Source of the DNA: Anthoceros angustus
Taxonomy: Eukaryota > Plantae > Anthocerotophyta
Length of the DNA: 64,000 nucleotides
Assembly: GCA_010909165.1 (NCBI GenBank)
Contig: VJWM01000144.1
Location: 434,001 to 498,000 of the forward strand
Reading direction: 5' to 3'
Of the stretch, positions 46,696-47,949 are shown piece by piece. The notes beneath the pieces were generated by a model. The model was not told the DNA's origin and did no database searches. It saw nothing but the letters and a program-made list of their open reading frames with translations. A program made the position numbers and the translations under genes. Position 1 is the first letter of the stretch, and every line of letters starts with the position of its first letter.

Positions 46696-47949
46696 GTGTT
46701 CGAGTTGTCAGAGGACGCGTGTGAAACAACATTGCAGGATCACGCGGTTGCCTCCGGAAAGACGCGGACACCGTACCGTGAGCTTTGGAATCCTACCAAG
46801 AAACTTCGCTGTCGACGTCGCGTTCAGCTTTTATACCAGCTTGTTGCTGGCCATTTCACAACACGGACAGATTGTCAAGTGTGCTGTGCTCAGCTGCGGG
46901 ATATCGATAGGGTGCCAGTCGTGGTGAAGGAAGTTGTTGCCAAGGAGATGGGGGCCAAGCAGTTTGAAGGGCATCTCTACTACAAATTCAAGCTCGTGGG
47001 TCTGAGGCCGACGGATCACGTCAATCTCTTGGATCTTCTGGTGAGGGTGAGAGGGGGCATTTTTGGCGGCACGCGTATTCTCAATCTGGGCTCCTTCCTC
47101 CACTACAATCGTCCCTGCCCTACTCCCACTGATGCCGATGACGATCCCGATGCGGAGGACTACGCTGCCTACGCAGCCGAAATTGAGCAGGGACTGCGGA
47201 TGCTGAAGGCGAGAGAGTACGATAACCTCCCGGAGGATGGCATTTTCGAAGTGCACCAAGATCAGAGCGTACACCAGGAACGCATCTCCACCGGGGCCGG
47301 GCTCTCCGCTAAGATTTTGCAGTTCATCACTGCTGGGTGCGCCACCAGTGCTGAGATGCTGTGCACCATCAACAAACTGTCCTACCATAAAGTAATCGAC
47401 TTGGCCATCAACGACCTGTTTGTGGGCGAAGAGCCTGCGGGCCCTGAAGCTGCACCACCTCTCTGGAAACCGGACGTGGGGAAGATTTCACGCGCCTGCC
47501 AGCCGAAGGAAGGCGGAGACGGGAGTTCACTGGAGATCTGGATTGTGAGGGAAACAGATTTTTGCGAAGAGCTCAGTTTCGAGGACGTGCAACAGAGCTC
47601 GGCAAATGCAGCCATTACGGTGGACGGAACAAGGAAAGCTGTGGAAGGACAGGCCAATCACCGGGCTGCCGTGAATCGGCACACCCGCGGTTTCCATCAG
47701 CTAGGGTTCAAGGCTGTCCGGCTGTTCTACAATGGGGATGGCGATTTGCTGAGATGGCGTCCTGACATGGGAGATTCTGTGCCAGCCCTGCGGAATCACG
47801 ATGTGGAAAGCTGCCATGACCGGTACCAGGATTATCATTTGGGAGCCTTCTTTGATGTTGAGCCACCACCAACGCACAGCACCAAGCCTGATGTTGCTAA
47901 CGTCTCACTGGAACTGTTAGACATCCAGACCCTGGCCACGGAAACCTGA
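46696..47949 (+). CDS. Gasdermin-like pore-forming protein (417 aa, intronless)
   Basis: Open 1254-bp ORF. Motif order matches gasdermin N-domains as recalled: LVGLRPTDHVNLLDLLVRV..LG; hairpin 1 ISTGAGLSAKIL; IWIVRET; hairpin 2 SANAAITVD..VEGQAN; LGFKAVRLFYNGDG; then PALR and a tail with GAFFDV. The ORF itself is near-certain; the family call is by eye. Confidence 0.68.
   Translation: MFELSEDACETTLQDHAVASGKTRTPYRELWNPTKKLRCRRRVQLLYQLVAGHFTTRTDCQVCCAQLRDIDRVPVVVKEVVAKEMGAKQFEGHLYYKFKLVGLRPTDHVNLLDLLVRVRGGIFGGTRILNLGSFLHYNRPCPTPTDADDDPDAEDYAAYAAEIEQGLRMLKAREYDNLPEDGIFEVHQDQSVHQERISTGAGLSAKILQFITAGCATSAEMLCTINKLSYHKVIDLAINDLFVGEEPAGPEAAPPLWKPDVGKISRACQPKEGGDGSSLEIWIVRETDFCEELSFEDVQQSSANAAITVDGTRKAVEGQANHRAAVNRHTRGFHQLGFKAVRLFYNGDGDLLRWRPDMGDSVPALRNHDVESCHDRYQDYHLGAFFDVEPPPTHSTKPDVANVSLELLDIQTLATET

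Follow-up and report, generated by a model that had tools for sequence, protein, structure and literature searches.

A 64,000-nucleotide stretch of the genome of the hornwort Anthoceros angustus (GenBank assembly GCA_010909165.1, contig VJWM01000144.1, positions 434,001 to 498,000 of the forward strand; hereafter the window, in whose coordinates all positions are given) carries an intronless gene on the + strand, 46948–47949, whose 333-residue product very probably belongs, together with its bryophyte relatives, to the gasdermins by both fold and homology. Divergent from it, on the − strand at 40416–43688, lies an intronless gene for a 1090-residue CHAT-domain protease. We propose that the gasdermin-fold protein would be held inactive by an acidic C-terminal tail until the CHAT protease, encoded ~3.3 kb away, cuts a conserved loop (M358–R366) and frees a pore-forming core, whose membrane pores would bring about a regulated death of the cell, probably as part of defence; the ~750-residue non-CHAT N-terminal part of the protease may serve as a sensor or regulatory region. 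Activation, sensor role, pores and cell death are drawn by analogy with the gasdermin–protease pairs of bacteria and fungi, and we lean slightly towards a tail-inhibited gasdermin that is activated by the neighbouring CHAT cut and whose core kills the cell. The main interest lies in the plant gene pair, and the initial annotation of the gasdermin-like frame had not noticed that the host is a plant. Two numberings are used for this protein: that of the 417-codon open reading frame (ORF) in which the gene lies, and that of the 333-residue protein, which is the ORF residue minus 84 (R366 = R282).

The family that supports this assignment is small. An exhaustive phmmer search of 1.84 billion representatives returned four matches at E ≤ 1e-3, of which the closest, P0003 (E 1.9e-50, 42% identity), comes from a hornwort transcriptome; P0004 (4.4e-7) and P0005 (3e-5) follow, and further relatives are from Sphagnum, with some of the records on contigs of 18–19 Mb. 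The fourth match, P0006 (E 4.7e-4), is a repeat protein that we judged spurious and kept out of all alignments. Profile searches (profiles A1 and A2) added only the Sphagnum-type variants P0021–P0023 and the exon-1 fragments P0024–P0026, and no relatives came up when the window protein was the query of a word-indexed homologue search. Prokaryote genome contigs yielded 45 pattern matches and viral contigs 48, with no family member among either, and a metagenome scan recovered three Sphagnum-like loci. In the Sphagnum gene the two halves lie in different frames and are joined in spliced database proteins, consistent with one intron. The Sphagnum orthologue (L001 1869–2950, L003 3001–4082; P0007–P0020) is often annotated as a 165-residue exon-1 "hypothetical protein", and one 113-residue Sphagnum piece is named "uncharacterized protein YrrD", so that public records split the family wrongly or misname it.

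The assignment to the gasdermins rests on the convergence of a curated profile and two independent structure searches. The PADLOC bacterial gasdermin (bGSDM) profile PDLC02986 matches five of eight family members (P0021 at E 3.7e-8, P0009 at 4.3e-6, P0004 at 6e-6, P0022 at 1.7e-5 and the hornwort protein P0003 at 4e-4), the match spanning profile positions 142–243 of 257, which correspond to residues 168–275 of the Sphagnum proteins and 185–269 of the hornwort protein; the NCBIfam prok_gasdermin model reached E 0.069 in one of the eight. An AlphaFold2 (AF2) model built from an 11-sequence alignment has a predicted template modelling score (pTM) of 0.68 and a mean predicted local distance difference test score (pLDDT) of 64.3, and presents an N-terminal helix, a confident long helix at 68–87 and long strands at 136–149, 195–213 and 243–261; its low-confidence parts are 59–63, 117–133, 216–241 and the whole tail, 275–333. 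When this model was compared with the Protein Data Bank (PDB) by Foldseek, each of the five matches at E ≤ 1e-3 was a gasdermin, namely bacterial 7n50, 7n51 and 7n52 (twice) and Trichoplax 8jyv, and gasdermin entries made up all 17 among the matches listed through rank 18. A structure search independent of Foldseek (VIA) likewise gave bacterial gasdermins as its best matches and aligned pore-state gasdermins over 175–193 residues. The alternation of hydrophobicity along the modelled strands had no diagnostic value. The initial annotation had called the frame gasdermin-like and had named the MACPF and aerolysin folds as alternatives; the gasdermin-like description is supported by transitive homology to the bGSDM profile and by the predicted gasdermin fold.

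The extent of the gene differs from that of the frame in which it was noticed. The open frame runs over 417 codons at 46696–47949 (+), and translation places CQVCC at residues 60–64, M85-G86 at 46948, TDADDD from 145, LGFKAV from 336, PALR at 363–366 and GAFFDV at 383–388, leaving 51 residues with a net charge of −8 beyond R366; each motif named in the initial annotation (the LGFKAV strand, PALR366, GAFFDV, CQVCC, M85-G86 and the acidic insert) was found where it had been placed. The recognisable genes of the window, described below, are by their sequence eukaryotic and plant-like, and the window is land-plant nuclear DNA; because of this gene content and of relatives that come from a hornwort and Sphagnum, eukaryotic start rules apply to the frame. 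It opens at a GTG, with no in-frame ATG anywhere in 46696–46947, and this GTG start is an artefact that stems from calling ORFs by bacterial rules. In alignment A3, a Met-Gly pair stands opposite M85-G86 in all ten relatives, nine of which start there and one of which (P0005) has nine more residues, while the 84-residue upstream frame has no counterpart in any of them.

Read data place the transcribed region in the same position. A single contig of run X2, 1579 nt long and with a word depth of 1278.8, matches 46895–48473 without differences or gaps and outlines a transcript-like span on the + strand with a 5′ leader of ~53 nt, the coding sequence and a 3′ untranslated region of ~520 nt; the "RNA?" label of the X2 library is a guess, no run is on record as RNA, and contigs do not fix transcript ends. 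X2 depth falls to 0–5 over the 450 nt upstream of 46895, and the DNA-type run X1 stays flat at ~19 across the region, so that the ~60-fold local X2 excess over the single-copy neighbourhood is transcript-like, that is, what a transcript would give. A third run, X3, contributed no matching contig. Stretches without X2 cover lie at 46437–46891, 43824–44323 and 41563–41813 and are contig gaps, which are no proof of absence. The stretch 46895–46948 is free of upstream ATG codons, and the start codon lies in the context GAGATGG. Because no ATG lies upstream, the relatives begin with Met-Gly and the upstream frame lies mostly 5′ of the X2 contig, we assign the true start to M85, giving a predicted coding sequence of 333 codons and a stop at 46948–47949. 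M85-G86, which the initial annotation had raised as a possible internal start, is thus the start proper, and the coding N-terminal extension of ~84 residues that it had described falls away: 46696–46947 (+) is probably non-coding promoter or leader. Its suggestion that the CQVCC cluster could be S-acylated or bind metal is likewise not supported, since CQVCC lies in this stretch, outside the protein.

Several features of the protein are retained across the family (333-residue numbering): M1-G2, L27-L28-D29, W173-x-P175-D176, E196-x-W198 and G253-F254-x-A256-x-R258. All eight full-length members carry GF[KQ]A.R, then M-G-x(6-7)-R and then an acidic stretch, and seven of the eight have a Y-H-[ML]-x-x-[FL]-F motif in the tail; judged from the aligned sequences, this layout is conserved and not due to chance. 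An acidic loop followed by a long helix is encoded at 47128–47205 (+; A3 columns 80–120), the helix being residues 68–87 in a block with pLDDT 89–93. This is the acidic/helical insert of the initial annotation, which is real and confidently modelled but, being family-wide in A3, is not peculiar to this copy. All 11 aligned sequences share the N-terminal Met-Gly, and no Cys occurs among the first ten residues of the window protein. N-myristoylation of the invariant Gly2 was considered and is not favoured: the canonical motif has a small residue at position 6, where this family has F, Q or W.

Directly past the last modelled strand (267–271) lies the loop MGDSVPALR, M274–R282 (M358–R366 of the ORF; 47767–47793, +), which contains the conserved M-G-x(6-7)-R and is a candidate protease-sensitive loop; the PADLOC bGSDM match stops at roughly the same place (profile 241–243 of 257). 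Beyond it extends the 51-residue acidic tail (47794–47946, +), with its conserved aromatic motif, pLDDT below 50 and GAFFDV at 47842–47859 (+). Tail length across the family is 51–59 residues. By analogy with other gasdermins, an inhibitory role for this tail is likely. Cleavage after R366, as proposed in the initial annotation, is plausible because the Arg stands at a near-fixed distance from the Met-Gly in all eight members, and M358-G359, equally conserved and eight residues upstream, could be an alternative cut site. In CRISPR systems, TPR-CHAT proteases cleave after Met or Leu, and separase and metacaspases cleave after Arg. As both positions are conserved and these P1 preferences differ, the scissile bond may be that after R366 or that of M358-G359.

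The neighbouring protease gene occupies a frame of 1122 codons, 40416–43784 (−), whose first ATG is M33, giving the 1090-residue protein. Its match to Pfam CHAT (PF12770) has E 1e-38 and 133.9 bits against a gathering cut-off of 24; the best stretch, residues 996–1082 (40539–40799, −), includes LSACSTG (1003–1009), and HIAAHG (882–887; 41124–41141, −) lies ~115 residues away across partly low-complexity sequence. HIAAHG and LSACSTG are the putative motifs of the CHAT His/Cys dyad, with Cys1006 likely catalytic. Pfam finds no named repeat, and no TPR, in the N-terminal ~750 residues, and the protein has no match among PDB sequences; the Atlas clusters nearest to it are made up of CHAT proteins from bacteria and fungi, with scores of 0.96–0.97. 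X2 contigs cover 41820–43362 and 43455–43823 of the CHAT region without differences. The start codons of the two divergent genes are 3.26 kb apart, and one copy of a dispersed repeat (44340–46018) takes up ~1.7 kb of the sequence between them. At the Sphagnum loci, no CHAT was found in the 2–6 kb examined, a length too short to judge synteny. A frameshifted partial duplicate of the CHAT gene (residues 776–1122, the 3′ third) lies at 38850–39886 (−), recovered by tblastn at 98–100% identity as five pieces in shifted frames. The CHAT 3′ third and ~540 nt downstream are duplicated in tandem over 38307–41456, the period being ~1572 nt (direct-repeat spacing 1569–1573). Contigs of both runs contain a joint that goes back 311, from 40190 to 39880, which fits such a duplication.

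The arrangement resembles a system described in the fungus Podospora, where, according to the accessible part of that report, the gasdermin Q1-6 (~35 kDa) adjoins Q2L-6, a 1,005-residue protein with TPR and a CHAT domain at 701–1,005 that processes Q1-6; HET-Q1 is activated by the removal of a C-terminal fragment of ~5 kDa, and protease genes lie next to most gasdermin genes of fungi (PMC8851545). The hornwort locus likewise sets a ~35 kDa gasdermin-like protein beside a protein of ~1,000 residues with a non-catalytic N-terminal region and CHAT at its C-terminus, the 51-residue tail is similar in size to the HET-Q1 fragment, and neither system has a signal peptide-like start. It differs in its land-plant host, in the lack of any TPR recognised by Pfam in the CHAT protein and in the family-specific acidic loop and helix, and here the system is predicted from the genes.

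Bacterial gasdermins (7n50, 7n51, 7n52 and 8sl0) provide the sole curated profile that matches the family and the best Foldseek and VIA matches, and they share a short C-terminal peptide, inhibitory in bacteria, and a neighbouring caspase-like, CHAT or other protease. In contrast to the matched bacterial chains (228–263 residues), the plant protein is 60–90 residues longer, has the acidic loop and long helix together with a longer, strongly acidic tail, and is encoded by a eukaryotic nuclear gene of which the Sphagnum copies apparently have one intron. It also begins with Met-Gly and lacks an N-terminal Cys, the residue that is palmitoylated in solved bacterial gasdermins. The distance to animal gasdermins (GSDMA–E; Trichoplax 8jyv/8jyw) is seen in the absence of a large helical C-terminal repressor and of a Pfam Gasdermin match in the plant protein; mammalian gasdermins have caspases or granzymes as their partner proteases, and that of Trichoplax acts independently of cleavage.

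Several observations weigh against a CHAT-activated gasdermin and have to be set beside the evidence above. The window protein itself has no match in Pfam (E ≤ 1), PADLOC or NCBIfam (E ≤ 10), so its homology to bGSDM is transitive through P0003, and P0005 and P0023 have no bGSDM match either. No Pfam family was found for P0001 or P0003–P0005, in a Pfam copy that lacked the bacterial gasdermin family PF26164. The AF2 model is a middling one, with 109 of 333 residues below pLDDT 50 and 11 aligned sequences, and the Foldseek TM-scores are modest (0.34–0.50). The lack of a direct profile match, together with a single-sequence AF2 model that failed at pLDDT 31, would suit the reading that a shallow alignment produced the fold assignment as an artefact and that we are looking at a lineage-specific bryophyte protein of some other fold and function. 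Searches of the family profiles against PDB sequences were also not significant: A1 gave two weak matches, EXO84 (E 0.28) and bGSDM 8sl0 (E 2), and A2 gave none. A PDB search with the protein P0021 drew only chance-level Tudor-domain matches (E 0.01). However, the PADLOC profile, Foldseek and the independent structure search agree with one another, and the weak early leads, 8sl0 and an Atlas cluster with 13% of its members labelled Bact_GSDM, point the same way, which makes an artefact very improbable.

A genuine gasdermin fold does not by itself imply activation by the neighbouring protease. The protein might respond to a change in redox state, to a binding partner or to some other protease, with the adjacency a coincidence or a relic of co-transfer; some eukaryotic gasdermins, including Trichoplax and RCD-1 proteins, are activated without cleavage, as stated in the accessible text of PMC12881547 and in the titles of 8jyv/8jyz. 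The adjacency was seen at this one locus, in a repeat-rich and rearranged region and beside a CHAT gene with a frameshifted partial duplicate, and the AF2 model does not place the tail on the core (pLDDT < 50). Against this reading stand the retention of M-G-x(6-7)-R in eight of eight members and of the tail motif in seven of eight, an intact CHAT frame of 1090 codons that is covered by X2 contigs, and the usual pairing of proteases with gasdermins in fungi and bacteria (accessible text of PMC8851545), and we consider it unlikely. Alternatively, the fold was co-opted for some non-lytic function, for instance secretion or the binding of membranes or lipids, and tail and helix would then be functional parts and not an inhibitor. 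A suicide protein kept latent would not usually show an apparent transcript depth of 1278.8, the family-specific acidic loop and helix 68–87 and the long acidic tail are conserved, and an invariant Gly2 replaces the bacterial N-terminal Cys. Precursor gasdermins can nonetheless be abundant and remain inert until cut, pore-state gasdermins are among the best structural matches and align with most of the core, and a protease gene adjoins, so that a non-lytic role seems improbable. The reading that we favour therefore remains that of a tail-inhibited gasdermin activated by the neighbouring CHAT protease.

The rest of the window is very uneven in composition (GC content per 2 kb, 0.34–0.63), with few long ORFs and no tRNA genes found across its 64 kb. 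A PPR protein with an E motif and a DYW deaminase is encoded at 14129–15883 (+; PPR E 3.3e-55, DYW E 9.7e-36), and the other recognisable genes include OST3/OST6, an LRR_9 protein and MULE transposases. A 620-codon frame without a Pfam family runs antisense to the PPR-DYW gene (13979–15841, −); the 13979–15883 region has a GC content of 0.63 and a GC skew of 0.36, and the antisense frame is probably a chance one in GC-rich, skewed sequence. An intronless gene for a 585-residue Mur ligase of the MurE type lies at 29495–31252 (−), and genes of this type are typical of plants that retain peptidoglycan-related genes. An element bearing a MULE transposase is present in two 100%-identical copies, 51024–53073 and 62167–64000, ~11.1 kb apart.

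A dispersed repeat of ~1.7 kb occurs at 36582–38253 and 44340–46018, with further copies near 31.5–33.3, 49.5–51.0, 59.0–59.9 and 61.1–62.2 kb. It flanks the CHAT gene as direct copies (94–99% identity) and is inverted beyond the gasdermin gene, which places the pair in a repeat-rich, rearranged region. Directly upstream of the gasdermin gene, short tandem arrays lie at 46568–46660 (31 nt × 3.0) and 45958–46092 (39 nt × 3.5), with 95% matches in each; they might be promoter elements or a piece of the dispersed repeat. Between the two genes there is also a 114-codon, ATG-started frame (46092–46436, −) without a Pfam family, and X2 contigs of low depth (3–5) lie over 46047–46390. None of the ORFs of at least 100 residues between or around the gasdermin and CHAT genes has a Pfam family. 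GC content at third codon positions (GC3) is 0.57 in the CHAT gene and 0.63 in the gasdermin gene against 0.68–0.79 in neighbouring host genes; this lower GC3, together with the lack of introns, is compatible with a foreign origin or with weak codon bias.

The type of system is known, and its presence in land plants appears new. Metazoans, fungi and bacteria are the only groups to which a 2025 review, in its accessible text, assigns gasdermins (PMC12881547), and according to the accessible part of one 2025 paper plants have none. Our searches found no report of a gasdermin in hornworts, Sphagnum, bryophytes or other plants, in literature that did not cover subscription papers and supplements. 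The chances seem to us evenly balanced that a gasdermin family exists in hornworts and peat mosses and at this locus forms a complete module, a CHAT sensor-protease with a pore-forming executioner. The gasdermin and its protease may have come jointly from fungi or bacteria. If this is true, land plants would have a pyroptosis-like cell-death system. Gasdermins have been described in animals, fungi, bacteria and archaea, and a plant module would extend protease-gated, pore-forming death to a fourth eukaryotic lineage. The CHAT/gasdermin pair, intronless, low in GC3 and set among repeats, would also be a case for the movement of modules between kingdoms, and plant immunity research would gain a testable executioner–protease pair.

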